DNA from: Candidatus Woesearchaeota archaeon
GTDB taxonomy: Archaea; Nanobdellota; Nanobdellia; SCGC-AAA011-G17; JACPIM01
Reading direction: 5' to 3'
Length of the DNA stretch: 64,000 nucleotides
Assembly (NCBI GenBank): GCA_018302125.1
Contig: JAGWAC010000003.1
Location: forward strand, 2,206-66,205
A program made the translations under genes and the position numbers. Shown here one piece after another: positions 1 through 31,917 of this stretch (the first letter of the stretch is position 1; each line of letters starts with the position of its first letter). The notes under the pieces were generated by a model, which was not told the DNA's origin, ran no database searches, and saw only the letters and a program-made list of their open reading frames with translations.

Positions 1-1382
1 ATCCTTGTAGAGCCAGAAGCATATCTTTCTTTAATCTGTCCAAATGTGTTTGAAGCAAATTTAGTATATAATAATAAATTATCTACAAAAACAGGGTCTT
101 CTATCCAAGGAAACATCTTGGATGTTGGTGCAAATACCATCTCTGAATAATTATCAGCCCACCCCTCCAGAGTTTGAGGTTCTTTCCATCCTAAACTAAG
201 TGCATGGTCAAACATCTCCCCCCCAGGATAAGGCCTGTAAGGTTGTGGTCCTATTATAAAAGAAATTGGATCTAATTTCTTTATTTTCTTGATAAGCTTG
301 ATTGTTTTTATCATTTCTTCTTTTGTTTCATTAGGCAATCCTATCATAAAAGAATAATTTCCCCTAATGCCCCAATTATGGCAAATCCTAACCATGTTCA
401 ATACATCTTCAATAGTATTGTCTTTTTTTATCATGTCAAGCATTCTCTGGCTGCCGCTTTCTGCGCCTATTCCTAATTCGCTGCAGCCACTCTCCTTAAT
501 ATATCTCATCATTTCATCATCTATAAGGCCCCTTCTAAAATAATCTGCCTTGCAGTTTGCACGCCAGTCAATTTTAATGTTCCTTTCAATTAATCCGTTT
601 AATATTCTTTTTACTCTCTCCTTGTCAACAAAAAATAACTCATCTCTGAATCTAATTTTAGAAATTCCTAATTTATTGTAAACATAAAATAATTCCCCTA
701 GAACTTTTTCTGGATTTTTTCCTCTCCATCTGTTTTTTGTAACAACATTTATGCAGAAAGTGCATCTGTGTGGACATCCCCTACTTGTAGTCACTGGAAA
801 AAATGTATCTGTGTCATTATGCCTGTATAAGTCTAGCATTTCTTCATCTAATAAACTATAGTCAATCATGGGTAATTTATTGACATCTATAAGTGGTTGG
901 ACTGGACTCAGTATCATTTGTCCATTTTTTTTAAATCCAATTCCATTTATGTGTTCATAAGAAGTATTGTTTTTTATAGCTAAATAAAGATTGTATAATG
1001 GTTCTTCCCCCTCGCCAATAACAATAAAATCAATATCTTTATGCTTGATAGTTTGATGTGGATATAAAGTTGAGTGAGCCCCGCCCCAGACAAATTTGGC
1101 ATTTGGATTTACAGATCTTATGATATTCATGATTTCAAAAGCAGACGTGATTTGGGCATTCATAACACCCATTCCAACTAAAATTGCATCTTTTGCAAAT
1201 TCCTTTACATAATCTTCATATTTTTCTCTGACAGAACAGTCTAATATCTTAACCTTAACTCCTTTTGCCACCAGATATGAACCTAGTTCAAGAAGATCAA
1301 CTGGTATATTTTGATAAAACTGAAAACTCTTCTGATTAAATCCAGGATTTATAAGTAAGACCTCAAATTTCTCTTTTTCCAT
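1..1382 (-). CDS. B12-binding (class B) radical SAM protein, C-terminus cut by window edge; not in ORF track because it is incomplete
   Basis: Minus-strand translation from ATG ~1382: MEKEKFEVLLINPGFNQ... with TSRGCPHRCTFC (CxxxCxxC) and N-terminal B12-binding-like region; continuous ORF to position 1. Confidence 0.7.
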   Translation of the reverse strand, partial: MEKEKFEVLLINPGFNQKSFQFYQNIPVDLLELGSYLVAKGVKVKILDCSVREKYEDYVKEFAKDAILVGMGVMNAQITSAFEIMNIIRSVNPNAKFVWGGAHSTLYPHQTIKHKDIDFIVIGEGEEPLYNLYLAIKNNTSYEHINGIGFKKNGQMILSPVQPLIDVNKLPMIDYSLLDEEMLDLYRHNDTDTFFPVTTSRGCPHRCTFCINVVTKNRWRGKNPEKVLGELFYVYNKLGISKIRFRDELFFVDKERVKRILNGLIERNIKIDWRANCKADYFRRGLIDDEMMRYIKESGCSELGIGAESGSQRMLDMIKKDNTIEDVLNMVRICHNWGIRGNYSFMIGLPNETKEEMIKTIKLIKKIKKLDPISFIIGPQPYRPYPGGEMFDHALSLGWKEPQTLEGWADNYSEMVFAPTSKMFPWIEDPVFVDNLLLYTKFASNTFGQIKERYASGSTR

Positions 1383-1531
1383 GTCAATAATTCCCCATTT
1401 AATTAGTTAGTAACCAAATTCCATATAAATAATAAACTATTGTTAATTTTATTTATAATTTATGTTTATATATTTTTCGAAAGTTTTGGCTTTACACATA
1501 AATGGATGTTATTGCAGTTAATTCAGACTTT

Positions 1532-2380
1532 TTACATTTTCAAGCCATTATCTAATGTCAGCATATCATCCCTGTCCAAAACCCACTTCTCAGCAGCATC
1601 TAAATTTTCTTTTAGATGTTCAAGACTTAAAGTCTTTGGTATTGTAACAACATTATATTTGGAAATAAGCCATTTTATGGCAATTTGAGATTGTGTTTTT
1701 TTGTATTTCTCAGACATTTCATCTAATATTTTAATTCCAGGTCTTGCTAGTTTTCCTTTTGCTAAAGACCTATAAGCTATAATAATTATCTTGTTTTTTT
1801 GACAATAAGGGATTATCCTTGATTCCATATTCTTAGTAAATTTTCCATAATCCCTGACCAATAAATTATACTCTATTTGGTTTGCAGATATTTTATTTTC
1901 GCTGTTGTCTTGTGCTTCTTTTAATTCTTCAACAGAAAAGTTGCTGACTCCTATGAATCTTGCTAAGCCATTAAAAACTAAATAGTCCATTGCTTTCATA
2001 GTCTCATGCATGGGAATTTCTTTATTATATCCATGTATTAAATACAGGTCAATATAATTTGTTCTCAATCTTTGCAAGCTCTTTTTTGCAGAATTTATTA
2101 AGTCTTTATATCCTAGGTTTTGTGGTGAAACCTTGCTTGTTATAAACAGGCTTTCTCTATTAAAAGTTTTTATAGCCTTTCCTATTAATCTTTCACAACA
2201 GCCGTTTCCATAAATCTCTGCTGTATCAATATGTTTTACCCCGAGAGAAATAGCTTGTTTTAAAAAATTAACACTTTTCCTGTTTTTAAAAATAATTGTA
2301 TCTAAAAGTCTTCCTATTCCCCCTGTACCCAAACCTATTGGTGGTATTTTAATGTTGTTGTATAACTTTTTATATTTCAT
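1532..2380 (-). CDS. aldo/keto reductase family oxidoreductase
   Basis: Motifs IGLGT, DTAEIYG, IDLYLIH, GVSNF typical of AKR superfamily. Confidence 0.8.
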   Translation of the reverse strand: MKYKKLYNNIKIPPIGLGTGGIGRLLDTIIFKNRKSVNFLKQAISLGVKHIDTAEIYGNGCCERLIGKAIKTFNRESLFITSKVSPQNLGYKDLINSAKKSLQRLRTNYIDLYLIHGYNKEIPMHETMKAMDYLVFNGLARFIGVSNFSVEELKEAQDNSENKISANQIEYNLLVRDYGKFTKNMESRIIPYCQKNKIIIIAYRSLAKGKLARPGIKILDEMSEKYKKTQSQIAIKWLISKYNVVTIPKTLSLEHLKENLDAAEKWVLDRDDMLTLDNGLKM

Positions 2381-2582
2381 AAAAATAAATCTCTCTTGGG
2401 TAAATTCCTATTTTTAGATTCCAAGTTAGTGGGGCCTTTAAAAACTTCTGTTCTAATTCTTCTGTAGCTAATTTTTAACAGATGCTATAAATCCGAAAAG
2501 CTTTTAGATATAGACTTGCTTAATGACATTTTATCGCTATTAAAGAAAGTGTATCAAGTTCTCAGGCTTAAAAAAATTATAA

Positions 2583-4397
2583 CTAGATTTGAATATTTCG
2601 GAAATAATAACTTTCCTTTCCTGATAGCGAAATACAATTAATTTTTTGTTTTCTGCATGAATCTTCCACTTTCTTTGCAATAATCATGCTCTTAAAATAT
2701 ATTTCTATAAATGGTCCTGGCTTATTTCTAAATATTATATCCGGAGGAAATGGGGCAGTGCCAGATTGTTGGGAAAAAGGAACCTGTTCTTTAGGGGCAA
2801 TAAATGGAGATATTTGAATAACATATAATCCTTCAAAATTTTTATAATCTTTTTTTATGTCATTGGGGAGTCCATAATAGTTTTCATAAGTCATATTTTG
2901 ATTACCAGACCTATGACTATATATCACTCTGTCATGAGAGAAACTATCAAATGCAAAAATATCTGCCTCAGATTCCAGAACATTTGTATTAATACTCTTT
3001 GCCCATAAATTCTTGCCAATTGCAATGTTTGAATTATTATAAAGAACATCACTTAAATATGTTCCATAATAAATATTCAATGTGATATTATTTAATCCAG
3101 CCTCATTAAACACATTTAATAAATCAGTCCTTGTATCAATTTCACGTAAGAGCAGGTCATGCTTAATAGAATCCCTTATATTTGGGTATAAAGAAACAAA
3201 ACTAATCAATACTAAAAATATGATCAGAATAAATTTTAATTTTCTAAAATCTGGAGAAGCGATTTTGTTTATCAATCTCATTAAACTTACATATAGGCCA
3301 TATACTCCTAATCCGGAATATGCACCCAATATAGGAAATAATGGCAGCATATATCTGTATAAAACTGACTTTGATAAACCAATAACAAAATAAAAAAATA
3401 ATGGAAAAGTTATTACTGTAATTTTTATTAGTAAGCTTGTTCTTCGATTTAAGACAAGGTATATTGTTCCTAAAACAGATAATATTAAAGGAAATAATCC
3501 ATACCCAAGATAGAGAGATTTTGTAATATGGTCTATCCAAGAGTAATTTGTTTCACTCTCAGCCCCATACCACCCTATTTTCACAGTATTTCTTTGGATA
3601 GAATTATACGCGTTAAATGTTTTAAAATCAAGAAATATATAAGGATTTAAAATAACAAATACAAGTACAGCAGTAACTCCTATTATTAAAATATGTTTTA
3701 ATAACTGGCGATATTTTTTACGATAAGAAAATAACATGGGAGCAAGAATTGCAACAGAAACTAAGAAGCCATTGAACTTTGTTGATGAAGTAATGCCTAG
3801 AACTATGCCTAGAATAATGATTTGCTTTAAGCTCATTGGCTCGTTTTCTTTTATAAAATTTAAAACTAATAATATTGTTAATGCAACTAAAGCAGCGAAA
3901 GGAATATTTACTGTTAAAAGATGGGAATTTGTAACCCATGATAAAGATGTAGCTACAAATAAAGCTGATAGAAAAGAAATGCTGCGTTTTTTTATTATTT
4001 TGTATGCGATTAAATATGTGCAGATAATTCCCAATACAGAAAATAAAAGTATAATTAAATGTCCTGGAAATTCAAATGAAATATTATGAAAGAGGGTGTT
4101 GGTTTCAAACAGTGTTCGAAATTCAGATGTGTCGCGAATCATGCCTATTAAATAAAGAAAAATAAATAGGAAAATGTAAGTTATCATAAAAATATAGATA
4201 ACAAAGCCAGGAGAAGAAAAATAAACTGGATTTCCAAGTCTTCTGGCAGCATTAAGTGCCGGGACCAAGATTGAATCTTGTATGTTCAGCGGAAGACCCC
4301 CTATGATTCCAAGAAGAGTAGTTATAAGAGTTAATAAAATTAAATCTATTTTAAATGGTTTTAAAGAAATTAAATGTCTCTTTATTGTTTTTATCAT
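2583..4397 (-). CDS. multi-pass membrane glycosyltransferase, GT-C fold (PMT/ArnT-like) candidate
   Basis: 604 aa, >10 predicted TM helices, N-terminal loop with conserved acidic/aromatic residues as in GT39/GT83-type enzymes; sits next to sugar-modifying genes. Confidence 0.45.
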   Translation of the reverse strand: MIKTIKRHLISLKPFKIDLILLTLITTLLGIIGGLPLNIQDSILVPALNAARRLGNPVYFSSPGFVIYIFMITYIFLFIFLYLIGMIRDTSEFRTLFETNTLFHNISFEFPGHLIILLFSVLGIICTYLIAYKIIKKRSISFLSALFVATSLSWVTNSHLLTVNIPFAALVALTILLVLNFIKENEPMSLKQIIILGIVLGITSSTKFNGFLVSVAILAPMLFSYRKKYRQLLKHILIIGVTAVLVFVILNPYIFLDFKTFNAYNSIQRNTVKIGWYGAESETNYSWIDHITKSLYLGYGLFPLILSVLGTIYLVLNRRTSLLIKITVITFPLFFYFVIGLSKSVLYRYMLPLFPILGAYSGLGVYGLYVSLMRLINKIASPDFRKLKFILIIFLVLISFVSLYPNIRDSIKHDLLLREIDTRTDLLNVFNEAGLNNITLNIYYGTYLSDVLYNNSNIAIGKNLWAKSINTNVLESEADIFAFDSFSHDRVIYSHRSGNQNMTYENYYGLPNDIKKDYKNFEGLYVIQISPFIAPKEQVPFSQQSGTAPFPPDIIFRNKPGPFIEIYFKSMIIAKKVEDSCRKQKINCISLSGKESYYFRNIQI

Positions 4398-4401
4398 TTC
4401 T

Positions 4402-5469
4402 TTAGAGTTTAATTAAACTTTTTGCCATATTTCCTGCAATTGTCTGGTACGCTTCACAGGGAGTCCAGCAATTTGGGCATCGAAGAGCTTCTGCATCTTC
4501 CTGCATTCTTACTACATTAGGATCTTGCCAAAATCTTTTAAAATCATAATTAAATTCACGTATGTTTCCCAAAGGTTTTGCCCAAACTAAGCATGGAAAA
4601 ATATTTCCATAAGGATCCATAAAGCAGGATGAATTCAGCGCCTTGCAGGGAAGAGGTGATTTGCCAGTTTCTACAAATTTCTCTACAAATTTTGAATACC
4701 TGCTTTCAAAAAAGCTAACTTTCCAGTCATTTCCTTTCTTGAGTTTTCTATAGTTTCTGATTTCGTTAATAACGCTTTTATTGTATTCAACAGTTTTTTG
4801 TTGGTCAGAATTTTTAAAATAATGATTTGAAGTATGGTATAAATTCATATGTATATATTTTGGGTCTATACCATAATTTTTACCCAGGTTTTGAATAAAT
4901 GATTCTATCTTGCCCATGTTATATGGCGAAGAAGTATAACTGATAAAGACATTAAAGTGTTTATTTTCAAGTTTTTGCAGTTCGCGGAATGTTGTCAGGC
5001 ATTTGTTGAAAGAATCCTTTATTCCTCGAATTTCATTATGAGCTTCTTCATAGCCATCTAAGCTGATAGAAACTGCAAAACGTGGAATTTTTAAAGTTAG
5101 AATTTTTTTTACTTGTTCAACAATATTTTTTGTATCAAACCCATTTGTTGTTGTATGCACAACATAAAGTTCATCATTGTATTCTGTAATTGATTTTAGA
5201 ATTTGATAAACATCTCTAATAAACGGTTCTCCCCCAGTAAGTTGCAGCCAGGAAGATTTGGAATTTTTAAAAATATTTCCGATTTCTTCATAGCTAAGTT
5301 CTCCATCTTTTATCTTTTTGGGGTTTGCTAAATAATTCCTGCCAATGTTACAGGTTTTACATAAAAATGTACATGCATAAGTTATTGCAAAAGTAATCTT
5401 GCACGGGCTAGAAAGTCTTTTATAATTTGACATTAAAAGTTTTTTTGAAATTGAATAAAGAGGTTTCAT
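4402..5469 (-). CDS. radical SAM protein with C-terminal SPASM/twitch Cys-rich domain
   Basis: CTFLCKTC (CxxxCxxC) near N-terminus; C-terminal CKALNSSC...CPNCWTPC cysteine cluster. Confidence 0.8.
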   Translation of the reverse strand: MKPLYSISKKLLMSNYKRLSSPCKITFAITYACTFLCKTCNIGRNYLANPKKIKDGELSYEEIGNIFKNSKSSWLQLTGGEPFIRDVYQILKSITEYNDELYVVHTTTNGFDTKNIVEQVKKILTLKIPRFAVSISLDGYEEAHNEIRGIKDSFNKCLTTFRELQKLENKHFNVFISYTSSPYNMGKIESFIQNLGKNYGIDPKYIHMNLYHTSNHYFKNSDQQKTVEYNKSVINEIRNYRKLKKGNDWKVSFFESRYSKFVEKFVETGKSPLPCKALNSSCFMDPYGNIFPCLVWAKPLGNIREFNYDFKRFWQDPNVVRMQEDAEALRCPNCWTPCEAYQTIAGNMAKSLIKL

Positions 5470-6045
5470 TTTAAATAATAACCTTTCAGTTTTTTAATTT
5501 AAATAATTATCGAAAATTATTTCTTGCAGGCTGGATTTTCTTGTACAAGTTTTTTTAAATTTCTGTTTAAATTCTCTTTAATATAGATATTTCACCTATC
5601 TAAAAAAGTTTAATTAAAAATTTCCTTAATTGAAAAATGTAAAGTAAACCTTTAAAGTATACACTTCTCAAAATCAATTAATTCTGTCAATAAGCTTCCT
5701 AAATTCATTTTTAGAAGATAAAATTGTATACTTGAGAGTGCACATTGTTTTCAAGTCAATTTGTAATATTGTCAGTTACTCATTAAATCTTAAAAGTTCT
5801 GAGAACTTTTCCATAAGACTGTATACTTAACAACTTTACTTAACATAAAAGGGCTCTGTATAATTAACTAATGGTGGAGAAATTCTTTCTCTCAAAAGTG
5901 TGAAATTTTGTCGTTTTAAGCTAATCTCATTTTTTTCAAATGAACTTTTATTTATAAAATTAAAGTCCCTAAATATATAGGCTTATTTTAAGATATATTC
6001 AAAGCTTTAAAAGGCCTTGTAAAAAAATAAATATTTGGGGTTTAT

Positions 6046-7461
6046 ATGGATAAAAAAAAAGTATTATTAATTAATCCATCAATGATGAGTGTATATGAGA
6101 AATCAGTCCTAAAAAACTCATTTCCGCACTATCCACCTCTCAATCTTCTCACAGTTGCCGGAGCGTTAAAACAAAATTCCATACCTGTTTCTCTATTAGA
6201 TCTTGACTTAATTAATAACCGCGAATTAACTGAAGTACTTCAAGAAAAATTACGCGAGGTTAATCCAGAATTAGTGGGTGTCACATTCACCACAACATTA
6301 TACAGTCAATGTGTAAAGATTGCCGAAATAATTAAGAATTACAAAAAGGATATCATTGTTGTTGCTGGTGGTTCTCATGCATCTTCAAAACCAGAAGATC
6401 TCATTACCAAAACACCGTATGATATGGCAGTTGTTGGTGAGGGAGAATTTACTCTTGCTGAAGTCATGACTAAACCAAAAGAACAATGGAACACAATTAA
6501 AGGACTTGTCTATAAAGGAGATAAAGGAGAAATTATCAAAACAGAAAAACGTCCATTTATCAAGAATCTTGACGAAATTCCATTTCCCATGTATGAAATT
6601 ATCAATATCTATAACTATAACATTCCGCCAAGTTTCAGAAGAAAAACACCAACAGCTTGTATGGAAACAAGTAGAGGCTGTCTATGGGGATGCACTTATT
6701 GTAACAAGTCTGTCTTTGGAAGAAATTTCCGTGTAAAAAGTCCTGAGCGAACAGTCAAGGAAATTGAACAATTAGTTTCTCTTGGTTATAAAGAAATCCA
6801 CATCGTTGATGACATGTTCACGACTAACAAAGAACGTGTCAAAGAAATTTGTCGTCTTCTTATTGAAAAAAATATAAATATAATCTGGGCATGTCCTAAT
6901 GGCATACGCGCAGATAGAATTGATCGAGAACTCATAAGCCTAATGAAAAAAGCAGGATGCTATCGTGTGTCCATTGGTGCAGAATCAGGAAATCAAGATG
7001 TCTTGAATGCAATTGAAAAAAATCAGACACCTCAGCAGGTTGAAGTAGCTTTCAAGATTTGCAGAGAATTAGGTATGGTCACACATGGATTCTTTATGTT
7101 CGGTCTACCAGAAGACACTGAAGAAACAATGCAGCAAACAATCGAGTTTGCAAAACGCTGTGAGCCAGATATTGCAAAATTCGGCATCATGATCCCTTTA
7201 CCTTCAACACCGATTTACGAAAAATGGAAAGAAAAACAAGCTATTACAGAAAACTGGGATGATTACGGATTCCATAAAGAAAAACCAGTTTATACTCACC
7301 CAACTCTATCACATGAAACTATAAAAAAATACTATAAAAAATCATATCGCGAGTTTTATCTGCGACCAAGCTTTATTATTCGACGTGTATTTCGTAGTCT
7401 AAAGACTGGACAAATTTTTGATGATATAAGGTTAGTGCTTGCAACAAACTGGTTTTCTTAA
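6046..7461 (+). CDS. B12-binding radical SAM protein (class B)
   Basis: N-terminal Rossmann-like B12-binding region (VLLINPS...); SRGCLWGCTYC CxxxCxxC motif. Confidence 0.85.
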   Translation: MDKKKVLLINPSMMSVYEKSVLKNSFPHYPPLNLLTVAGALKQNSIPVSLLDLDLINNRELTEVLQEKLREVNPELVGVTFTTTLYSQCVKIAEIIKNYKKDIIVVAGGSHASSKPEDLITKTPYDMAVVGEGEFTLAEVMTKPKEQWNTIKGLVYKGDKGEIIKTEKRPFIKNLDEIPFPMYEIINIYNYNIPPSFRRKTPTACMETSRGCLWGCTYCNKSVFGRNFRVKSPERTVKEIEQLVSLGYKEIHIVDDMFTTNKERVKEICRLLIEKNINIIWACPNGIRADRIDRELISLMKKAGCYRVSIGAESGNQDVLNAIEKNQTPQQVEVAFKICRELGMVTHGFFMFGLPEDTEETMQQTIEFAKRCEPDIAKFGIMIPLPSTPIYEKWKEKQAITENWDDYGFHKEKPVYTHPTLSHETIKKYYKKSYREFYLRPSFIIRRVFRSLKTGQIFDDIRLVLATNWFS

Positions 7462-7548
7462 ATGATCAAGATTAAACCAGCAAAGCCAAAAATTTTATAA
7501 AAAGGGGAATCATTTTTTTATTAAAAATAAAAAAAGAAGTTAAAAAAA

Positions 7549-8910: not shown

Positions 8911-9043
8911 AAAATTATATTGTATTTTTTTCAGGAAGATAAAAAATGAAGAATAAAAAATGGAAAAAAATCAGGACTCTGCAACTAGAACAATCTACCG
9001 ATATATTTAAAAAGAATATTTTCTTAGAAAAAAGTGATTCTTT

Positions 9044-10168: not shown

Positions 10169-10185
10169 TCTCTTCTAAAATTACT

Positions 10186-22217: not shown

Positions 22218-23309
22218 TTATTTAAATAAATTTTCCAATAAAAAATCAAACCTCGTAAACTGTCTTTTATCTTCAAATCCCAATGCTTTAAATTGGCTGT
22301 ATTTGCTCATTTTCTTGTAAAATTCTTCATTATCAAAACTCTTTATTCCATTAACCCAATCTATAATATTATAAATATCATCAATAATGATTCCAGATCC
22401 CTCTACTTCTTCCCTTAGCCCACCCCTATCGCTTACAATACAAGGAATTCCGTTGCTCATTGCCTCAACAACAACCCTTGGGTGGGGGTCAGGAAAAACA
22501 GAAGGAACTATCAACAATCTCGCTTTGGAAAAGATCTTTTTTCTGTCTTCTTCATAGCCAATAACTTCAACATTCTTTAAATTTAGTTTATAATCTTTTT
22601 TTCCTGCAACTAAAAAATCCTTCTCAGGTAAAGCTCTTGCAATCTTCTCAAAAATTTCAACACCTTTGTGTTTGTCAGGATTTACATACAAAATATAACC
22701 TCCTCTTTTGTTAATTTGGCATTCATTAAAAGAAATAAATGGCCTTACAACCTCGCTCTTTACATTGCAAAATTTCAGAGTAATATCTCTAAGATAATTG
22801 CTGACAGAACAAATTAAATTCGCATTCTTTAAAGCCCACTTAGTTTTTTTTACTACAAATTTAAAAAAAGGATATTGTACTTGATAAATTAAATCTCTGC
22901 TTAAAGAGAATTTTTTTTCTTCCGGCAAATAACTCATAAAATTATCAATGCTTAAATGTAAAAAACTTCTCAAAAAGACAATAGTTTTTATATTGAACCT
23001 TTTTGCAATCTTAACACTTGGCCCGATTAAATAATCTTGTGTTATGATTAGGTCGGGTTTCTCCTTTTTAATTGCTTTTTTTAATATTCTCTCCCACTTT
23101 CTCCTTAAGAAAAATAAATTTATCCATAATCCTTTTTTTTGTTTAATATTTTGAGGATATAATTTTACCTTTGTATTTCCCTTTATTTTCCCAATATAAT
23201 AAGCACTCACATCATATTTTTCTGCTAAATGTTCTAATAAAGTAAAGGCAGAAACATCCCCGCCCCCCTCAAAAGGATACAACGATTTGTTTGAGTATAA
23301 AATTTTCAT
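22218..23309 (-). CDS. family 4 glycosyltransferase
   Basis: GT-B C-terminal motif (RVVVEAMSNGIPCIVSDRGGLREEV). Confidence 0.7.
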   Translation of the reverse strand: MKILYSNKSLYPFEGGGDVSAFTLLEHLAEKYDVSAYYIGKIKGNTKVKLYPQNIKQKKGLWINLFFLRRKWERILKKAIKKEKPDLIITQDYLIGPSVKIAKRFNIKTIVFLRSFLHLSIDNFMSYLPEEKKFSLSRDLIYQVQYPFFKFVVKKTKWALKNANLICSVSNYLRDITLKFCNVKSEVVRPFISFNECQINKRGGYILYVNPDKHKGVEIFEKIARALPEKDFLVAGKKDYKLNLKNVEVIGYEEDRKKIFSKARLLIVPSVFPDPHPRVVVEAMSNGIPCIVSDRGGLREEVEGSGIIIDDIYNIIDWVNGIKSFDNEEFYKKMSKYSQFKALGFEDKRQFTRFDFLLENLFK

Positions 23310-23349
23310 CTCAAAACCTATAAATACTAGATTTTTAAGCCTTTTCTAC

Positions 23350-24501
23350 ATGAAAATAGCTTATATAACTGCTTTCTATTATCCAACAATAGGCGGGGTA
23401 GAACAAGTAGTTAAAGAACTGGCAGAAAGATATGTAAAGCAAGGTCATGAAGTCCATGTATTTACATCCGATTGGGATAAAAAAAGCAGGATAAAAATCA
23501 AGGAAGAAATAATTAATGGAGTTCATATTCATAGGCATTTTCATATTTTAAAAATTGCAAGTTTTGCATCAGTTTTTCCCTTTTTATTGTGGACATTATC
23601 AAGATATAAATTTGATATTATCCATACTCATGTTTCTGGTCATGCACATACTTTTTTCGGATCCTTAATAGCTAAAATAAAAAATACGCCATTAATTCAT
23701 ACAACTCACTGCCCTTGGACAGAAGGATTTAGATCATTGGCAGGAAGAATTTTAGTTTATTTGTCTTATAAGACTATAAACAAGTTAAGCTTCAAATTTT
23801 CTAATAAAATAATTGCAATTACTCCATGGGAAATTCCATTTATAGAAAAATATGGGGGGAAAAAAGAAAAGATAGTGATAATACCAAATGGGGTAGCCAA
23901 AATATTTTTTAATAAAATAAAAAATAATGATTTTAAAAAAGAATTAAAGATTAAAGAGCCAATAGTTTTATTCTTCGGAAGGTTAAATCCAACAAAAGGT
24001 CCTGATAAATTTGTATTGGCAGCAAAAGAAATTCTGAAAGAAAGAAAAAATATAAAATTCTTGATTGTGGGTCCAGATGAAGGTATGTTGAATAAAGTAA
24101 AAGAATTAAGCAAAGATGAAAAAAATATTATTATTCTTGACCCAATAAGAAATAAAGAAAAAATAGCTAAAATGTATCAGTCTTCCAATGTATTTGTATT
24201 ACCAAGTTATCGTGAGGGATTGCCATTATGTTTATTTGAAGCTTTAGCAAGCGGATTGCCAATTGTAGCTTCCCCAGTAAATGGAATACCCTTTGAAATA
24301 TCAGATCCTGAAAATGGATTTTTTGTAGAATATGGGGATATTCAAAAATTAAAAGAAAAAATATTGTTGTTGTTAGATGATAAAAAACTGGCTAGAAAAA
24401 TTTCCAAAAATAATAAAGAAAAAGCAAAAAATTATGATTGGGATATTATAGCAGAAAGAACTTTAAATTTATATAAAAAGATTATAAATAAAAATCTTTA
24501 A
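23350..24501 (+). CDS. family 4 glycosyltransferase (start at MKIAYITAF)
   Basis: MKIAYIT...GGVEQVV N-terminus; EALASGLPIVASPVNG...ENGF motif; TATAAATA ~25 nt upstream of this ATG; track ORF begins earlier at 23287. Confidence 0.75.
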   Translation: MKIAYITAFYYPTIGGVEQVVKELAERYVKQGHEVHVFTSDWDKKSRIKIKEEIINGVHIHRHFHILKIASFASVFPFLLWTLSRYKFDIIHTHVSGHAHTFFGSLIAKIKNTPLIHTTHCPWTEGFRSLAGRILVYLSYKTINKLSFKFSNKIIAITPWEIPFIEKYGGKKEKIVIIPNGVAKIFFNKIKNNDFKKELKIKEPIVLFFGRLNPTKGPDKFVLAAKEILKERKNIKFLIVGPDEGMLNKVKELSKDEKNIIILDPIRNKEKIAKMYQSSNVFVLPSYREGLPLCLFEALASGLPIVASPVNGIPFEISDPENGFFVEYGDIQKLKEKILLLLDDKKLARKISKNNKEKAKNYDWDIIAERTLNLYKKIINKNL

Positions 24502-24809
24502 ATTTCTAATCTAAAATCAAATTCAGAATAGATTTCTTTAATATATTCAAAATCTTTATCTTTAGCTATTAATCTAGCTCCCCTATTTATACACATCGCA
24601 GCTATCATAATATTGACAGCACCAATTGGTGTTCCTTTTTTTCTCAGTTTTTCTGATATTTCTATAGCCTTGATATAATCTACATCTTCAGGAAAAAGTA
24701 TTTCAAACTTATCAATTGATGGTGGATGTTCTATAACAGTAAAAACAGAAATAGTTCCTTCTTTACATTCTATAGCTATGCTTGTGTCAAGTATTTCTTT
24801 CTTTTCCAT
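24498..24809 (-). CDS. PIN-domain toxin (VapC-like) candidate
   Basis: ILDTSIAIE N-terminal acidic motif and C-terminal NIMIAAMCI...DKDF resemble PIN nuclease; overlaps upstream small gene. Confidence 0.45.
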   Translation of the reverse strand: MEKKEILDTSIAIECKEGTISVFTVIEHPPSIDKFEILFPEDVDYIKAIEISEKLRKKGTPIGAVNIMIAAMCINRGARLIAKDKDFEYIKEIYSEFDFRLEI

Positions 24810-25045
24810 TCTTTTTCCTTCATCTTCTTATAAAATCCAATACTCTCTTTTTCATCAGCAGATTTTATGCTATTTTGTACATCTAAGGGTAAAAGCTTCA
24901 AAAGTTCTTTTCCTGATATATGATTTCTAAGAGACAAGGTTTTTTTTATAATGCTCTGTCTAGCAACCTCACTCCACTTTATTTCTGGGTGTTTCTTCAT
25001 CTGTTCGTATACTGCGTCTGGAATACTTAATGTTATATGCGCCAT
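24776..25045 (-). CDS. antitoxin-like small DNA-binding protein paired with the PIN gene
   Basis: 89 aa, MAHITLSIPDAVYEQMKK N-terminus; 34-nt overlap with downstream PIN ORF, typical of type II TA organisation. Confidence 0.4.
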   Translation of the reverse strand: MAHITLSIPDAVYEQMKKHPEIKWSEVARQSIIKKTLSLRNHISGKELLKLLPLDVQNSIKSADEKESIGFYKKMKEKEWKRKKYLTQA

Positions 25046-25147: not shown

Positions 25148-25732
25148 ATGAAAAAATTAAGAATAGAATTAGATACGGAAAAATGTATTGATAACAGGAG
25201 CTGTATAAATATAGATCCTTTACATTTTAAATCAAAAGATAATAAGGCATTTCTAAAAAAAGGCGCTGGAAAAGGAAATTTACAGGTTTTAAATCTGGAA
25301 GTTTCAGATCAGGAAGCTGAAAAAATAATAAAAGCAGCAAGTTCCTGCCCTACAAATTCAATAAAAGTTATTGATGTACAGGATCAAAAAGAACTAGTCA
25401 CAACAGAATTAAAGCAAGATAATATAAAAGAAATTGAAGCTAAATATGATGACAACAAAGAATTTGTCCTTGACCCAGCAGGTTACTTTTTAATAAGGAT
25501 AAATAAGGAAAAGAAATTAATAGAAGTTGGCTTTTGCAATGAAAGAAACAAGTTAGTTTTGAAGATTGTTGGAAAAAAGCCAATAGAAGTTTACAATGAA
25601 ATAGTCAATAAAGAAAAACTGCCTATAAGAAAAGATCACTGCGCATATTTAGGCAGGGAACTGCAGAAAGCATATATATCTCTTCAAGAAAATCTTGAAT
25701 ACATTCAAGATGAAGAACTTAAATTTCAATAA
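25148..25732 (+). CDS. ferredoxin-like 4Fe-4S domain fused to a domain of unknown function
   Basis: DTEKCIDNRSCINIDP...CP cysteine pattern at N-terminus; remainder unassigned. Confidence 0.4.
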   Translation: MKKLRIELDTEKCIDNRSCINIDPLHFKSKDNKAFLKKGAGKGNLQVLNLEVSDQEAEKIIKAASSCPTNSIKVIDVQDQKELVTTELKQDNIKEIEAKYDDNKEFVLDPAGYFLIRINKEKKLIEVGFCNERNKLVLKIVGKKPIEVYNEIVNKEKLPIRKDHCAYLGRELQKAYISLQENLEYIQDEELKFQ

Positions 25733-26060: not shown

Positions 26061-27908
26061 TTGACAAATGTCCTCGTAATAAAACAAGGTGCATTAGGCG
26101 ATGTCCTAAGATCAGCATGCATACTTACAGGTATAAAAAGAAAATATCCGAATTCTAAAATTTCATGGTTCACAAAAAAAGAAGCCCTAGACCTAGTAAA
26201 AACAAATCTCTACATAAACAGGATTTTTCTTTACAGCAAAGAAGGCATTGAAAATTTAAAGAAAGAGATTTTTGATATAGTAATAAATTTAGATGAAGAT
26301 TATGAAGCTTGTTCTTTGACAACATATTTCTTGAATAAAAAAGCAAAAATTTATGGATACTATGTAAATAAGGCAAACAAAATAGTTCCAACGCCTTCAG
26401 CAGAATATTATTTTAAAATGTCATTAATCGGCCCGAAACCGATGAACGATGTTTTGAAAAAAAAGAACACTAAAACATATCCTGAAATAATCTATGAGTT
26501 AGCAGAATTAAATTACAAAAAAGATCCTCCTATTTTACTGTTGACTAAAAATCAAAAGCAGTTTGCAGAAGATTTTCTAAGAAGGCATAATCTTACAAAA
26601 AATGATTTTATAATTGGTATTAATACTGGTGCTAGTGCAAGGTGGCCATTCAAAAGCCTGCCTATAGAAAAAACAGCAGAATTAATTGAAAAGTTGTACA
26701 AAGAGTTGAATGCAAAAATAATTCTGTTTGGTGGTCTAGATCAAGTTGAAAGAAATGATAAAATAATGGTTATGTCAAGAGTTCCATTAATAAACGCTGG
26801 CTGTGGTAATTATATTTTTGAATTAGCTTCCTTAATCTCAATTTGCGATACTGTTGTTACATCTGATTCATTAGGGCTTCACATTTCTTTGGCATTGAAA
26901 AGAAATACAGTTGTTTTCTTTGGGCAGACAGCTCCTCAGGAAATTGAAATGTACAATCAAGGCTTGAAAGTGTTTACGTCTTCTGAATGTGTAGGTTGTT
27001 ATTCTTCTTATGATGGTAGAATCCCTAGTTGTATTGATGGCGTCCATGTAAAAGATTTATTTAACGCAGTTTTGGAAGTAAGAAAACAGTCCTTGTCAAT
27101 AGTTCTAATGTCTGCTAAATTAGAAGAGACAGAAAAGACATTAAAGTCTATTTTAGACCAGAAAATAAATGTTCCTCATGAGATTATTGTTTCAACTAAA
27201 GATAAAAATGTAAAAGACCTTATAAAAAAATATGACAGCATAAAAATAATTCTTCAAAAAGAAAACTCACAAAATTTAATAAATGCTGGCTTGGAAACAG
27301 CAAAAAATAAAATAATCTTGGTTACAACAGACAAGGCAGTTCTTGCAAATAATTCAATTAATGAAGTGCTAAATTCATTTAAAGACCCAGCAGTAGGTTG
27401 TATAACTGGCAGACCAGTATCATTAAACCCAAAAACTAATGTAATTGGTTATTGGTCTCACTTATTGTTTGATGCTGGTGCTCATAGAATAAGAAAAGAA
27501 CTTTCATTTCAAGAAAAATTCTTTGAGTGCACAAATTATTTGTTTGCTTTTAAAAATGGTTTTGTAAAAGAAATTCCAAAAGGTATTGCAGAAGACCATT
27601 TAATTCCATATATATTCTGGAAAAATCTTTACAAGTTAAAATATTTGGAAAACGCAAAAGTATTAGTAAAAAACCCGGTTACATTAAACGAGTGGCTAGA
27701 ACAAAAAACAACAAATGCCAAAAAGCACGAAATAATCCAAAAAAAATTAAACTTAAAACAAGCCAAAGTAAAATCACTTAAAAACGAAATATTAAAAGGC
27801 ACAATTTCAGCCCTGGCATATCCAAGAACTATAAAGGAATTTTACTGGACAATTTTGTTATTTTTTGCAAGATTATCAATGTGGCTAAACGTAATAATTA
27901 AAAAATAA
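26061..27908 (+). CDS. bifunctional glycosyltransferase: GT9 (heptosyltransferase-like) N-terminal domain fused to GT2-like C-terminal domain; TTG start
   Basis: N-term KQGALGDVL and TSDSLGLHISLAL...VVFFGQT GT9 signatures; C-terminal ~270 aa with GT2-like layout. Confidence 0.6.
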   Translation: MTNVLVIKQGALGDVLRSACILTGIKRKYPNSKISWFTKKEALDLVKTNLYINRIFLYSKEGIENLKKEIFDIVINLDEDYEACSLTTYFLNKKAKIYGYYVNKANKIVPTPSAEYYFKMSLIGPKPMNDVLKKKNTKTYPEIIYELAELNYKKDPPILLLTKNQKQFAEDFLRRHNLTKNDFIIGINTGASARWPFKSLPIEKTAELIEKLYKELNAKIILFGGLDQVERNDKIMVMSRVPLINAGCGNYIFELASLISICDTVVTSDSLGLHISLALKRNTVVFFGQTAPQEIEMYNQGLKVFTSSECVGCYSSYDGRIPSCIDGVHVKDLFNAVLEVRKQSLSIVLMSAKLEETEKTLKSILDQKINVPHEIIVSTKDKNVKDLIKKYDSIKIILQKENSQNLINAGLETAKNKIILVTTDKAVLANNSINEVLNSFKDPAVGCITGRPVSLNPKTNVIGYWSHLLFDAGAHRIRKELSFQEKFFECTNYLFAFKNGFVKEIPKGIAEDHLIPYIFWKNLYKLKYLENAKVLVKNPVTLNEWLEQKTTNAKKHEIIQKKLNLKQAKVKSLKNEILKGTISALAYPRTIKEFYWTILLFFARLSMWLNVIIKK

Positions 27909-28326: not shown

Positions 28327-29715
28327 ATGAAATTTCTATTTTTAGCATGGAAGCATCCTGTAGAACCATTAGGTTTGTTATACATAAGTGCAATTCTAAA
28401 AAAAGACAATCATAAAACAAAAATAGCTGTTATAGGACAGGATGATTTAACAAAAGTTGTTCAGGATTTTAAGCCTAATGTTGTTGCAGGTTCTGTAATG
28501 ACTGGTGGCCAGACAGAATTTCTAAGGATAACAAATGAACTAAAGCAGCATCATAATTTCTTGACATTAATGGGTGGTTCTCATCCAACTTTCCATCCGC
28601 AAGTATTGAAAGAAGAAGGAATGGATATTGTAGCTCAGGGTGAATGTGAAGAGGCAATTGTAGAATTTGCAAATAATTACGAACAAGGAAAAGATTATAC
28701 AAAAATACAAAATCTTTGGATAAAAAAAGATGGAAAAATTTACAAAAATGAAATCAGAAATTTAAATGAAAATCTGGATACATTACCTTTTCCAGACAGA
28801 GATGTTGCATATGAACATAAAATCTGGAAAGATGAACCAATTAGACATTTCATTGCTTGCAGAGGTTGCTCGTATAAATGCCAATACTGTTTTAATAGCG
28901 CCATAGATAAAATATATGGTGGAAAAGGAAAATGGGTAAGATGGAGATCTGTAGATAATTTAATTGCTGAAATCAAAGAAGTATTTCAGAAGTATGGTGG
29001 AAAATTTGTTTATTTTCAAGATGATATTTTTGTTATGAATAAGCCATGGTTAAAAGAATTTGCAGAAAAATACAGAAAAGAAATTAATTTGCCATTTCAT
29101 TGCCATGTAAGACCCAATAATATTGATGAAAATACGGCTCGCCTATTAAGTGAAGCAGGGTGTTATTCAGTTCATATGGCATTAGAAGCAGCAGATGATT
29201 ATATTAGAAATGTAATAATTAAAAGAGAAATGGATAAAGAAACAGTTTACAAAGCATCAGACTTGCTGCATAAATATGGGATTAAAATTATGTTGCAGAA
29301 TATTTTGGGTTTGCCAGAATCTAGCTTGGAAACAGATTTGGAAACATTAAAGATGAATATTAAATGTAAGCCATTATATGCTTGGTGTTCAATATTCCAG
29401 CCATATCCTGGTTTGCCGTTGACAGAATATGCTATATCAAGAAACTTATTAGAGGGCGATTTTGATGATATTGGTCCAAAGTTCTTTGAAACAACTGTAG
29501 TTAAGTTAGAAAATAAAAAACAAATCGAATACTTGCAAAAATGGTTTGCAGTTGCATCAGCTTATCCATTTATTTATAAAACTGGATTGTTAAAATTAAT
29601 ATTAAATATGCCTGATAATAAGCATATAAAAAATCTTTACAAATTCATTTACAATAAATTTAGAAATCATAAAGACAATCAATTATATGGTATTAAATTG
29701 TCAAGTGCTGCTTAA
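28327..29715 (+). CDS. B12-binding radical SAM protein (class B)
   Basis: ACRGCSYKCQYC motif; N-terminal B12-binding-like domain. Confidence 0.85.
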   Translation: MKFLFLAWKHPVEPLGLLYISAILKKDNHKTKIAVIGQDDLTKVVQDFKPNVVAGSVMTGGQTEFLRITNELKQHHNFLTLMGGSHPTFHPQVLKEEGMDIVAQGECEEAIVEFANNYEQGKDYTKIQNLWIKKDGKIYKNEIRNLNENLDTLPFPDRDVAYEHKIWKDEPIRHFIACRGCSYKCQYCFNSAIDKIYGGKGKWVRWRSVDNLIAEIKEVFQKYGGKFVYFQDDIFVMNKPWLKEFAEKYRKEINLPFHCHVRPNNIDENTARLLSEAGCYSVHMALEAADDYIRNVIIKREMDKETVYKASDLLHKYGIKIMLQNILGLPESSLETDLETLKMNIKCKPLYAWCSIFQPYPGLPLTEYAISRNLLEGDFDDIGPKFFETTVVKLENKKQIEYLQKWFAVASAYPFIYKTGLLKLILNMPDNKHIKNLYKFIYNKFRNHKDNQLYGIKLSSAA

Positions 29716-29717: not shown

Positions 29718-30869
29718 TCAATTTATTACTCTTCCACTTTCATATACAATCATTTTTCTTCTTCTCAATTCTTTGAAAAATGGTTCTGGTGGCACAATAG
29801 CTTCAGGAGCAAAACTTCCCTTTTCTTTTATAATCTCATTTTTTACCATTTGTGCCATAATGCTTGCAGGCATTCCAGTATCAATATTACAACCAGCATC
29901 ATGCCACCCATTTATTGTTGGTACAATGCACTCCATCAAAATAGTTTTCTTTTCCCTGTTTTTTTCCCCACTAATCTTTACCCATAAATTCTCCTCTTCT
30001 TTGTATCCTTTGGGAACTTCAATTCTCTTCAAAACTTCTGTTAAAAAATCAACTGGAGCTATTTTTACACCATTAAAGAAAATTTCTTCTTTGCTTCCAA
30101 ATCCCAGATCTATCATAGCTAATATTTTTTCAAAAGAATGTTGTGGGAATCCAGCATAAAATCTAATGTTCTTTACACCCTTGTCCTTGAAATATTTGTA
30201 AAAAGTATAGGTTTCTGGGTGTCTTACAAAAAACTCTTTTTGCTTTCCTATCTCTCTATGATGATCAACAATTACAGAATCCAAAGGAGTCTTTTTAATA
30301 AATTTTTTATTCTCAACTACTGGGGCTGGATCTGTAAATTCTTCAATAATGCTTTTTATTGAAAATGGGACTACAAACTTTTTAATATTAGAATCCCAGC
30401 TAAATCCTACCTCAATATCAATAACTTTGTCTAATTTATTTGCAGCATGAGTTAACATTACATTTCCAATTCCAGGAACTGATCCGCATCCTGTAATAGA
30501 TATTAATTCTTTTCTTTGCAATAAATCATTTAATTTAAACTGCTCTTTAGTCATCCAAATTTCTGACCCTAAATCTAAACAATTTGCTCCAGCTTTTATA
30601 GATAATTGTAAAGCAGTTAAATTAAAATCTCCCTCCATGCAGTTTACAACTACACTGGATCCAGATTTCTTAAGAACCTTTAATGCATTATGAATATCTC
30701 TTATGTCTACAAATTGAAAAGAAGTTTTGTCATACTTGTTTAAAATTTGTTCTACTCTAGGTTTATCTCTTCCGCACAATAAAACAGAATAACCATTCTC
30801 TAATAAATCTCTAGACACAATTCTGCCCTGCATACCAGTGGCACCCAAAACTACAAAATCGTACTTCAT
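29718..30869 (-). CDS. saccharopine dehydrogenase-like NAD(P)-binding oxidoreductase
   Basis: VLGATGMQG Rossmann N-terminus and overall Sacchrp_dh-like layout. Confidence 0.6.
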   Translation of the reverse strand: MKYDFVVLGATGMQGRIVSRDLLENGYSVLLCGRDKPRVEQILNKYDKTSFQFVDIRDIHNALKVLKKSGSSVVVNCMEGDFNLTALQLSIKAGANCLDLGSEIWMTKEQFKLNDLLQRKELISITGCGSVPGIGNVMLTHAANKLDKVIDIEVGFSWDSNIKKFVVPFSIKSIIEEFTDPAPVVENKKFIKKTPLDSVIVDHHREIGKQKEFFVRHPETYTFYKYFKDKGVKNIRFYAGFPQHSFEKILAMIDLGFGSKEEIFFNGVKIAPVDFLTEVLKRIEVPKGYKEEENLWVKISGEKNREKKTILMECIVPTINGWHDAGCNIDTGMPASIMAQMVKNEIIKEKGSFAPEAIVPPEPFFKELRRRKMIVYESGRVIN

Positions 30870-30939
30870 TTTACATAATATAAAGAAATCCTAATTTAAA
30901 AAGTTTTAGTTATTTTTTTTATGATATAATCAATTTTAT

Positions 30940-31812
30940 CTAAATTAACTTTTCATGCTTTTGTCTTATGCCTTCATATACTCCTATAAAAAAAGCAGAC
31001 ATTAAATCAAAATGACCTCTTTTTATAAAAAGACAAAACTGCATTGGCAGTATAAAAAATAAACTAATTAGCAAAAACAAACAATATCTTAATGAACTTA
31101 CATGTTTTTTCATAAAAATAAACCTGTTTCTTGTCAAGAAATAAACAACTCTTCTGTTCTTTTTTCCACCGCTGCTTCCATATAGTTTATGCCAAACTTT
31201 TGCTCTAGGATTAATGAATATTTTATATCCCTTTTCCATAGCCTTAAATTGAAGATCCTCAGTTTCAAGATATAAAAAATATTTCTCATCATATCCACCA
31301 AGATTTTGAAATATCTCCTTATTAAAAATCATTACACACGCATCAGTATATTCTCCATAGTTTAACTCCCTAATCTCTTTTTCATCTTTTAAAGCATTGC
31401 CTATGCCAGTAAATAAATTTATTCTGCCTCCAAAAGCATTTACTTTCTCCTTATCATTAAAATTATAAATAGCACCTCCGACAAAAGCAATTTTTCTATC
31501 TTTTTCAATTAATTCTAAAAGTTCTTTGACTGCCTCCTTGTCAACCTCAATATCAGGGTTTAACAATAAAACATATTTGCTTTCTATATATTCTAAAGCC
31601 TTGTTAACTCCACCAGCTAACCCAAAATTTTTATTGCTCTTAATTAAAATAACCTCTCCACATTCCTCTAATTTTCTTAAATCTTCATTTGAATTATTAT
31701 CAAAAATTAAAACATCAGAGTTTTTATAAGAAGAATCTTTTAAATTTTGAATTAAATTCAAAGTATCTCTTGTACTGTTGTAATTTACAATTAAAATGCA
31801 GAGTTTTTTCAT
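30940..31812 (-). CDS. family 2 glycosyltransferase (start likely at MKKLCILIVNYN)
   Basis: ILIVNYNS, DxD-like region, GT2 catalytic domain; C-terminal TM helix. Confidence 0.7.
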   Translation of the reverse strand: MKKLCILIVNYNSTRDTLNLIQNLKDSSYKNSDVLIFDNNSNEDLRKLEECGEVILIKSNKNFGLAGGVNKALEYIESKYVLLLNPDIEVDKEAVKELLELIEKDRKIAFVGGAIYNFNDKEKVNAFGGRINLFTGIGNALKDEKEIRELNYGEYTDACVMIFNKEIFQNLGGYDEKYFLYLETEDLQFKAMEKGYKIFINPRAKVWHKLYGSSGGKKNRRVVYFLTRNRFIFMKKHVSSLRYCLFLLISLFFILPMQFCLFIKRGHFDLMSAFFIGVYEGIRQKHEKLI

Positions 31813-31917
31813 GAATAAAAATAAAAAGCACAATATTTATAAACTACCTGTTTCTCTAAAAAATTACCCTTACTGTATCAATAATTAGTCGCTGATTCTA
31901 GAAAGAAATATAAAGCA

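Follow-up and report, generated by a model that had tools for sequence, protein, structure and literature searches.

A 64,000-nucleotide stretch of contig JAGWAC010000003.1 from Candidatus Woesearchaeota archaeon (hereafter, the window) carries a chromosomal cell-surface glycan locus of this DPANN archaeon, adjoining a ribosomal protein operon, in which radical S-adenosylmethionine (rSAM) genes are interspersed with glycosyltransferase (GT) and sugar-modifying genes. The core of this island is a cassette (2583-11867) in which a GT-C glycosyltransferase and an rSAM protein with a short SPASM domain (SPASMa), both on the reverse strand, face two rSAM proteins with B12-binding domains (B12b and B12c), a second SPASM-type rSAM (SPASMb), a short-chain dehydrogenase/reductase (SDR297) and a small GT2 glycosyltransferase (GT2_231) on the forward strand. 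Satellites of the cassette are located at 1-1382, 17121-18257, 25148-25732 and 28327-29715. On balance, the rSAM enzymes of the cassette likely tailor a sugar, linked to a nucleotide or a lipid, by radical chemistry, and the GT-C enzyme would then deliver this sugar to a surface acceptor. A conserved rSAM cassette inside primary surface-glycan loci, widespread in DPANN archaea, Candidate Phyla Radiation (CPR) bacteria and other anaerobes, is apparently undescribed; no account of an rSAM cassette in a surface-glycan locus was found in the full-text literature searched, with subscription literature outside the scope.

What had been a remark on many rSAM genes can be recast as a testable unit of a GT2, an SDR, two paired rSAMs and a GT-C, often with B12-domain rSAMs. 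Radical sugar tailoring is known mainly from the pathways of aminoglycoside, macrolide-sugar and nucleoside antibiotics and from hopanoid and calditol head groups. If the proposed function is correct, this chemistry would join primary cell-envelope glycobiology, and new sugars (e.g., C-methyl, deoxy, epimerized or ring-contracted) would be probable. The surface of DPANN archaea and CPR bacteria, of which the chemistry is almost unknown, is presumably central to their life in attachment to host cells.

Radical SAM proteins of the glycan island

The preliminary description of this DNA placed seven rSAM genes in the island, and an open reading frame (ORF) with the CX3CX2C motif is found at all seven positions. 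Each of the seven belongs to the Radical SAM superfamily (PF04055, 44-115 bits; Pfam cut-off 29.5). Four were described as class B enzymes with B12 domains, and these indeed combine PF02310 (B12-binding, 52-65 bits; cut-off 32.1) with Radical_SAM (74-115 bits; cut-off 29.5): (i) B12a (1-1382, reverse strand; 58 and 75 bits, respectively), (ii) B12b (6046-7461, forward strand), (iii) B12c (7549-8910, forward strand) and (iv) B12d (28327-29715, forward strand; 57 and 74 bits). B12a is the partial gene noted at the window edge; it is cut at the C-terminus, with 460 of 522 aa inside the window and the last 62 residues outside, and retains the CX3CX2C motif. The full-length gene is present on a contig of the same strain (L001), where one more B12-domain rSAM gene (478 aa) and a class I methyltransferase gene lie immediately left of the window; thus, the true rSAM count is eight.

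Of the three rSAM proteins described as SPASM enzymes, the assignment holds by Pfam for SPASMa (4402-5469, reverse strand; SPASM 23.6 bits) and SPASMb (9044-10168, forward strand; SPASM 29.9 bits), for which the cut-off is 21.5 and which also match Radical_SAM. The third, rSAM378 (17121-18257, reverse strand), has Radical_SAM (62.9 bits) and Fer4_12 matches and no Pfam SPASM match at E<=1e-3; its SPASM label thus derives from a cysteine motif that parallels those of the other two. Conserved C-terminal cysteines number four in SPASMb, five in SPASMa (C275, C293, C331, C334 and C338 across 39 aligned homologs) and five in rSAM378 (C301, C319, C356 and C360 are invariant, and C354 is conserved in 9 of 10 homologs). 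The rSAM378 family pattern is C-x17-C...CxCx3C, while a C-x17-C...CxxC pattern is common to all three families and appears compatible with a one-cluster twitch motif of the BtrN and MoaA type. The full seven-cysteine SPASM motif, with its two auxiliary [4Fe-4S] clusters, is absent from SPASMa, SPASMb and rSAM378. With four to five conserved C-terminal cysteines, the proteins are therefore better called short-SPASM/twitch-like, the domain of SPASMb probably being of the one-cluster type. The extreme N-terminus of SPASMb (window 9044-9170) is unusually conserved, with Arg2 invariant and Tyr5 nearly so in homologs down to 31% overall identity. This region has two predicted helices of ~40 residues before the rSAM core, and a role in membrane or partner docking is possible.

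None of the seven rSAM proteins can be assigned to a named family, and such assignments were rejected. Each protein has 29-88 NCBIfam matches at E<=0.01, of which none reaches a curated cut-off. For the B12-domain proteins, the best matches are HpnJ or BchE, at 121-223 bits where 481-578 would be required, with HpnJ at the top for three of the four B12 paralogs of the window (best, 223 bits against a cut-off of 578) and the truncated B12a as the exception. The NCBIfam cut-offs are also not reached for PhpK, HpnR, BzaD, the methyl-coenzyme M reductase (MCR) glutamine methylase, the AprD4 family and the ladderane lipid rSAM, for all of which the shortfall is larger than for HpnJ. The SPASM-type proteins have best matches to WgkB, AhbD, PTO1314 and similar families, far under cut-off. 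PDB sequence matches are distant as well, with B12b related to AprD4, OxsB and TsrM, and SPASMb to MoaA, glycerol dialkyl glycerol tetraether (GDGT) synthase GDGT-MAS, CteB, SkfB, BlsE and DesII. An NCBI entry identical to the B12b product is named 'radical SAM protein'. Among themselves, the B12-domain proteins of the window are 22-34% identical (34% for B12c and B12b; 22-28% for B12d and the others) and the SPASM-type proteins ~25% identical; as judged from these values, the rSAM paralogs are old.

Conserved linkage in archaea and bacteria

Homologs of B12b number 2184 at E<=1e-10 among the scored candidates, and 421 relatives of the family are found among the species representatives of GTDB. 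Its range includes Woesearchaeota, Pacearchaeota, Nanoarchaeota, Methanoperedens/Methanosarcinales, Elusimicrobia, Omnitrophota, Saccharibacteria, Planctomycetes, Nitrospirae and Dehalococcoidia, among others. The B12b neighborhoods of a Woesearchaeote, Methanoperedens and Falkowbacteria (CPR) all carry GT2, PMT_2, SDR, DegT, methyltransferase and further rSAM genes. The immediate neighbors of B12b homologs (n=148 from 80 loci) include 27 GT2, 17 class I methyltransferase, 17 rSAM, 10 PMT_2 and 9 SDR epimerase genes, and a GT2_231-like gene accompanies the B12b homolog in 39 of 71 loci. At least two rSAM genes are found within 10 kb in 47 of the 80 related loci and at least four in 12 of the 80; some loci have six, and an uncurated ORF list gives six or seven for loci of Woesearchaeota (L032), Nanoarchaeota (L054) and a PVC bacterium (L068). 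Thus, the rSAM density that had been singled out as unusual is not a special trait of this island; going by these counts, rSAM-rich glycan loci instead recur in these lineages.

The SPASMb family is small, with ~90 full-length homologs of at least 30% identity in a word-indexed search of 5.8 billion proteins and 208 relatives in Joint Genome Institute (JGI) metagenomes. Its linkage was counted in the 44 related loci that have six or more genes. A SPASMa homolog is no more than five genes from the SPASMb homolog in 25 of these 44 loci and is the neighboring gene in nearly all 25, the two being halves of a conserved pair. Also near SPASMb homologs are GT2_231-like (22 loci), SDR297-like (15), B12c-like (12), B12b-like (10) and GT-C genes (at least 10). 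The 96 SPASMb neighbors that were otherwise unlabelled most often match the Pfam family PMT_2 (13); methyltransferases (8), GT9 (6) and TPR (5) come next. An iterative hidden Markov model (HMM) for GT-C detected the enzyme in 54 related loci and missed divergent members (e.g., 500-670-aa neighbors in L099, L100 and L108), so that all GT-C counts are lower bounds. B12c is the B12 paralog most often within the GT2-SDR-SPASM module, with a B12c-like gene at this position in L090, L095, L099-L103 and L108; rSAM378-like genes are near SPASM pairs in L095, L138, L142 and L144.

Two gene contexts can be distinguished by the identity of SPASMb to the window protein. Above ~39% identity, the pair is found with GT2_231-like, SDR297-like and PMT_2 GT-C genes and often with a B12c- or B12b-like rSAM (L090/L094, L095, L099-L103, L105, L108, L113-L116 and L092). 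The last of these, an 8-Mb bacterial genome, has the order PMT_2-GT2-rSAM/SPASM-SDR-rSAM/SPASM. In the 32-38% range, the pair comes after a GT9-like gene and before TPR or large membrane proteins and a B12 rSAM; GT9 genes thus flank the SPASM pairs of the more distant loci. An example is the GT9-SPASMa-SPASMb-TPR-B12 rSAM-TPR block of Geobacter sp. AOG1 (L091). This block (GCA_019972315.1, BLIZ01000001.1, ~361-368 kb, within the L091 locus at ~353-374 kb) lies between very large multiheme cytochrome genes. Geobacter sp. AOG1 is a cultivated bacterium and may offer an experimental entry point.

A locus of Nanoarchaeota (L090) is closely related to that of the window, with identities of 92% for B12e, 89% for B12a, 83% for SPASMa, 85% for SPASMb, 80% for the GT2 and 90% for rSAM378. 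The same locus is without B12b and the aldo/keto reductase, its SDR is 39% and its B12c 45% identical to those of the window, and the order of these two differs; the closest B12b orthologs (65-70% identity) are located in other gene contexts. The comparison suggests the replacement of alleles or cassettes inside a conserved frame, as would be expected of a surface-antigen locus. The divergence of SDR297 and B12c (39-45%) amid flanks of 80-92% identity hints at diversifying selection on a surface structure.

Such mosaicism, together with the age of the B12 paralogs (22-34% identity), would also be in keeping with unrelated housekeeping rSAM genes that were gathered in a variable region and share no common pathway. 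This explanation is, however, very improbable. No housekeeping rSAM family is matched at cut-off by any of the seven proteins, and the genes do not resolve into well-characterized single-function enzymes scattered by chance, as no NCBIfam cut-off is reached. All seven rSAM genes are in the glycan half of the window, among ~27 genes of the first 32 kb, whereas none is present among the ~55 genes of the housekeeping half (32-64 kb), a distribution for which C(27,7)/C(80,7) is ~3e-4. The clustering thus exceeds chance, by this count and, more importantly, by the recurrence of the same families side by side across archaeal and bacterial phyla.

Substrate and proposed chemistry of the cassette

The partners of the rSAM proteins are those of sugar metabolism. 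The GT-C glycosyltransferase (2583-4397, reverse strand) is PMT_2/ArnT-like (PMT_2, 48.9 bits with a cut-off of 26.1; PMT, 35 bits) and has ~8 hydrophobic segments. PMT_2 GT-C enzymes use lipid-phosphate sugar donors, as exemplified by ArnT, PMT and AglS. GT2_231 (11172-11867, forward strand) is a small soluble GT2. Its NCBIfam matches, all under their cut-offs, are AglJ (139 bits; cut-off 325), the mycobacterial polyprenyl-phosphate-N-acetylgalactosamine synthase PpgS (77 bits) and a haloarchaeal dolichyl phosphate (Dol-P)-hexose transferase (67 bits), and its top PDB match is the Dol-P-mannose synthase of Pyrococcus furiosus (5mlz); from these matches, GT2_231 is probably of the polyprenyl/dolichyl-phosphate sugar synthase type. 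The GT2 is again linked to a PMT_2 GT-C with multiple spans in L008, L009, L090, L092, L105, L113 and L114. SDR297 (10186-11079, forward strand) is an extended SDR of NmrA/NAD_binding_10-like type (Pfam Epimerase, 101 bits), in which the Tyr-x3-Lys motif is conserved (Y121 in 23 of 23 and K125 in 22 of 23 homologs), and is proposed to be the keto-reductase partner of the rSAMs. Residues 232-250 of SDR297 were considered as a conserved membrane helix that might hint at a lipid-linked substrate; this idea was dropped, as the 22 further homologs in the alignment do not share the hydrophobic character.

A further candidate partner, of the B12-domain rSAMs, is a protein with a ferredoxin-like domain fused to PterinBD-DUF4346 (Fer4-DUF4346; 25148-25732, forward strand; Fer4_13/15 and PterinBD-DUF4346, 69 bits), for which a role in electron transfer, redox or cofactor supply can be considered. 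Its homolog is directly after the closest B12b orthologs (L007, 11425-12027; L010, 11398-12006; L011, 1553-2146) and nearby in L016. MtrA-like and dihydropteroate-synthase-like proteins also carry the PterinBD-DUF4346 domain, at their C-terminus. An aldo/keto reductase (1532-2380, reverse strand; Aldo_ket_red, 195 bits), possibly a keto-sugar reductase, is an accessory gene that is missing between B12a and GT-C in L090. The two rSAM operons diverge from a 576-bp intergenic region (5470-6045), which has only short unconserved ORFs and presumably carries the promoters of both. An Rfam search of the whole window, including this spacer, gave zero matches, and a riboswitch-type RNA element was rejected.

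Structural modeling also points to sugars. The AlphaFold2 (AF2) models of SPASMb (pLDDT 91.6) and B12b (pLDDT 87.5) are both confident, and that of B12b superposes on AprD4, MgmA, CysS and TsrM; for both models, the closest solved structures are sugar-acting rSAMs, by modest margins. The nearest structure to the B12-domain proteins is AprD4, a diol dehydratase. AprD4 is not known to use cobalamin. Thus, while the B12-binding domain of the class B enzymes stands, the methylase or alkylase role given as typical of this class in the preliminary description need not hold, and the sequences are compatible with either presence or absence of cobalamin binding and methyl transfer. The proposal of an undescribed radical route acting on a surface glycan or lipid-linked carrier is otherwise strengthened by the lack of a named family, the linkage to glycan genes and the likeness to sugar-acting rSAMs.

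In the route considered most likely, GT2_231 would charge polyprenyl or dolichyl phosphate with a monosaccharide, and SPASMa and SPASMb would abstract a hydrogen atom from the sugar, leading to oxidation, epimerization, decarboxylation or deoxygenation. SDR297 would reduce the keto intermediate left by the paired rSAMs. Analogies for such radical oxidation and reduction may be drawn with BtrN, BlsE, DesI/DesII and AprD4/AprD3 and, for lipid-linked substrates, with DprE1/DprE2, HpnJ and Cds. The B12-domain rSAMs may catalyze the C-methylation of unactivated sugar carbons (as do GenK and GenD1) or may be dehydratases resembling AprD4 or ring contractors resembling HpnJ, with electrons perhaps supplied by the Fer4-DUF4346 protein. 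The PMT_2 GT-C would then attach the completed sugar, at the outer face of the membrane, to a glycan or protein of the surface. We infer the substrate, its nucleotide or lipid linkage, the order of the steps and the exact chemistry; tailoring at the nucleotide-linked stage is as compatible with the sequences as tailoring at the lipid-linked stage. A more specific scheme can be offered tentatively, in which the SPASM pair and the SDR act on a polyprenyl-phosphate-linked sugar in an O2-independent epimerization of the DprE1/DprE2 type or a BlsE-like decarboxylation of a uronate to a pentose, while the B12 rSAMs add C-methyl branches. The result might be a new class of lipid-linked sugar donor for GT-C enzymes of surface decoration in DPANN archaea, CPR bacteria and many other anaerobes.

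The logic of a GT2 that works with a GT-C is that of known systems, and the proposed mechanism is not without precedent. ArnC/ArnT, AglD/AglS of Haloferax and PpgS/Rv3779 of mycobacteria likewise pair a small GT2 with a multi-span PMT_2 GT-C, and the Arn pathway resembles the island in having a DegT aminotransferase and SDRs nearby. These systems are not known to contain rSAM enzymes, whereas in the cassette an SDR and two to five rSAMs separate or surround the GT2 and GT-C, and its GT2 is under every equivalog cut-off. HpnJ and the calditol synthase Cds are rSAMs proposed to remodel lipid-linked sugars by ring contraction (PMC13459092). The HpnI/HpnK/HpnJ and Cds systems are similar to the proposed cassette route in that a lipid receives a hexose or hexosamine from a glycosyltransferase and an rSAM is proposed to remodel the sugar, with HpnJ as the top match of three of the four B12 paralogs; they differ in that the window proteins score far under the HpnJ cut-off and the window has no hopanoid or GDGT genes. 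Moreover, the sugar of HpnJ and Cds stays as a lipid head group, while the GT-C of the cassette suggests hand-over to another acceptor.

AprD4/AprD3 (C3' deoxygenation of apramycin) and DesI/DesII (C4 deoxygenation of desosamine) share only ~21% identity and act on soluble antibiotic intermediates in actinomycetes, with no surface-glycan locus, second twitch rSAM or GT-C. BlsE (a cytosylglucuronate decarboxylase) is 18% identical, and unlike the settings of BlsE and BtrN (a twitch rSAM dehydrogenase), the cassette has no nucleoside-antibiotic or aminoglycoside genes near it; SPASMb further differs from both by its conserved N-terminal extension of ~40 residues with the invariant Arg2. By contrast to the cobalamin-dependent class B sugar C-methyltransferases GenK and GenD1 (also Fom3, TokK, CysS and MgmA), the B12-domain proteins match no equivalog at cut-off, their nearest structure (AprD4) is not a methylase, and their binding of cobalamin is a prediction.

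An action on the lipid, i.e., the polyprenol or dolichol carrier or the tails of membrane lipids, would also fit some of the matches. Such enzymes might catalyze methylation or C-C coupling, as do Tes/GDGT-MAS, GrsA/B and the methylases of GDGT and glycerol monoalkyl glycerol tetraether (GMGT) lipids. GDGT-MAS is among the PDB sequence matches of SPASMb and rSAM378, rSAM378 scores 54 bits with Tes, the B12 paralogs score 89-148 bits with the ladderane-lipid B12 rSAM family in NCBIfam, and B12-domain rSAMs are established modifiers of archaeal lipids (PMC13459092). However, the likeness goes no further than the rSAM core that these enzymes have in common, and MoaA is matched at least as well. 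Bacteria with ester lipids (Geobacter and Gemmatimonadota/Latescibacterota relatives) also carry this cassette, and the genes linked to it encode sugar enzymes, with none for lipid biosynthesis. Modification of a lipid is thus quite unlikely.

Several points weigh against the tailoring of a sugar for delivery by the GT-C. The full module of five genes is seen in a minority of loci, GT-C detection being incomplete, and the substrate may differ between subgroups, as the more distant loci have GT9 and TPR proteins in place of the GT2 and SDR. Likeness to characterized enzymes is far under the NCBIfam family cut-offs throughout. No AglB/STT3 oligosaccharyltransferase is present among the ORFs of the island or, in the remainder of the window, among the larger ORFs; the enzyme may be encoded elsewhere in the genome. 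In addition, SPASM and twitch enzymes are mostly peptide maturases.

This last point leads to an explanation in which the SPASM-type rSAMs, and perhaps the B12-domain rSAMs, mature a peptide or protein, either a glycosylated peptide that is made by the ribosome and modified after translation (RiPP) or a surface protein that is later glycosylated by the GT-C. In keeping with it, the characterized SPASM enzymes act mostly on peptides, SPASMb best matches WgkB, StsB and the mycofactocin maturase in NCBIfam (all well under their cut-offs), TPR-containing proteins adjoin the pair in Geobacter-type loci, and a 33-aa ORF (8946-9047, forward strand), called as a gene in L003 and L004, overlaps the start of SPASMb. 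The ORF was rejected as a RiPP precursor. It has no cysteine, is kept only in near-identical strains and L104 (74%), and does not occur in L090/L094, whose SPASMb proteins are 85% identical to that of the window. Among 153 small intergenic ORFs near SPASM pairs, none belongs to a conserved family. Thus, the earlier statement that the island has no obvious precursor-peptide ORF extends to related loci, and the weak preference that was based on it, for a sugar or lipid over a peptide, is maintained. Among island ORFs of at least 100 aa, Pfam detects no PqqD/RRE domain, protease or leader peptidase, or ABC exporter; the sole transporter is a Wzx-type flippase. The conserved partners of the pair are instead GT2, SDR, GT-C and GT9 proteins, and peptide maturation is considered unlikely.

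Other genes and chromosomal setting

The remaining genes of the island are those of conventional glycan assembly, and the complement described earlier (GT2, GT4, GT9, GT-C, DegT, epimerases, acetyltransferase, AsnB and Wzx) was recovered in full by Pfam and NCBIfam. A DegT/PseC-like sugar aminotransferase (11873-12964, reverse strand; DegT, 413 bits; PseC, 310 bits, under the cut-off of 423), a NeuD/PglD sugar N-acetyltransferase of the NeuD/PglB/VioB family (14261-14887, reverse strand; TIGR03570, 204 bits, over the cut-off of 160.8; PglD_N and Hexapep) and an NDP-sugar 4,6-dehydratase/epimerase-type SDR (14955-15971, forward strand; Epimerase, 157 bits; GDP_Man_Dehyd, 145 bits; dTDP-glucose 4,6-dehydratase, 125 bits, under cut-off) are found to the right of the cassette core. 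From family membership, the dehydratase-type SDR, the aminotransferase (PseC/PglE-like) and the acetyltransferase would together form an acetamido-deoxy sugar nucleotide.

Four GT4 glycosyltransferases are encoded at 13046-14254 (forward strand; Glycos_transf_1, 129 bits), 15966-17111 (reverse strand; its 83% identical L090 counterpart is beside the rSAM378 homolog), 22218-23309 (reverse strand) and 23287-24501 (forward strand), all assigned by Pfam. A fusion of a heptosyltransferase-like GT9 to a GT2 (26061-27908, forward strand; Glyco_transf_9, 60 bits) and a GT2 at the right-hand end of the island (30940-31833, reverse strand; Glycos_transf_2, 67 bits), next to the L3 and L4 genes, complete the set. 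By family, the GT4, GT2 and GT9 enzymes would assemble an oligosaccharide on a lipid carrier. An AsnB-type glutamine amidotransferase (18758-20746, reverse strand; Asn_synthase, 339 bits; TIGR01536, 511 bits, over cut-off; XrtA/PEP-CTERM amidotransferase, 608 bits, under cut-off) likely amidates the glycan, and a Wzx/MOP-family flippase (20686-22197, forward strand; Polysacc_synt and MatE; 13 hydrophobic segments) would flip it. A saccharopine-dehydrogenase-like oxidoreductase (29718-30869, reverse strand; Sacchrp_dh_C, 72 bits; Sacchrp_dh_NADP, 40 bits) is also present.

A stand-alone response-regulator receiver domain (18365-18757, forward strand; Response_reg, 42.6 bits), which lacks an output domain and has no kinase in its vicinity, is located between the rSAM378 and AsnB genes. 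A PIN-domain gene (24498-24809, reverse strand) overlaps an upstream 89-aa ORF (24776-25045, reverse strand), with the GT4 genes on one side and the Fer4-DUF4346 gene on the other; the pair (24498-25045) looks like a toxin-antitoxin module of the VapBC type in mid-island.

The G+C content is uniform at ~30% throughout the window (~28-34%), and the gene for ribosomal protein L3 starts at 31951, followed by L4, L2 and others of an archaeal ribosomal protein operon. The 32-64 kb region consists of this operon and other housekeeping genes (e.g., L1, L10 and GluRS). A viral or mobile-element origin of the island was considered and is unsupported, given the even G+C content and the ribosomal operon directly alongside, with no integrase seen. 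The B12b protein recurs on contigs from groundwater metagenomes, one record being labelled PRJNA268031 groundwater metagenome.

Envelope-related genes are also found outside the island, at 62119-62565 (reverse strand), 55121-55639 (reverse strand) and 55585-56831 (forward strand); they include a homolog of signal peptidase II (Peptidase_A8), a weak exosortase/archaeosortase-like match and a PAP2 phosphatase beside CTP_transf_1 (CDP-alcohol/CarS-like). Two ORFs of the housekeeping half (53253-53714, forward strand, and 53192-53674, reverse strand) overlap almost wholly, with Pfam matches to zf-CDGSH and HxlR in different halves. Probably, two short genes that diverge were each called too long here (53192-53714).

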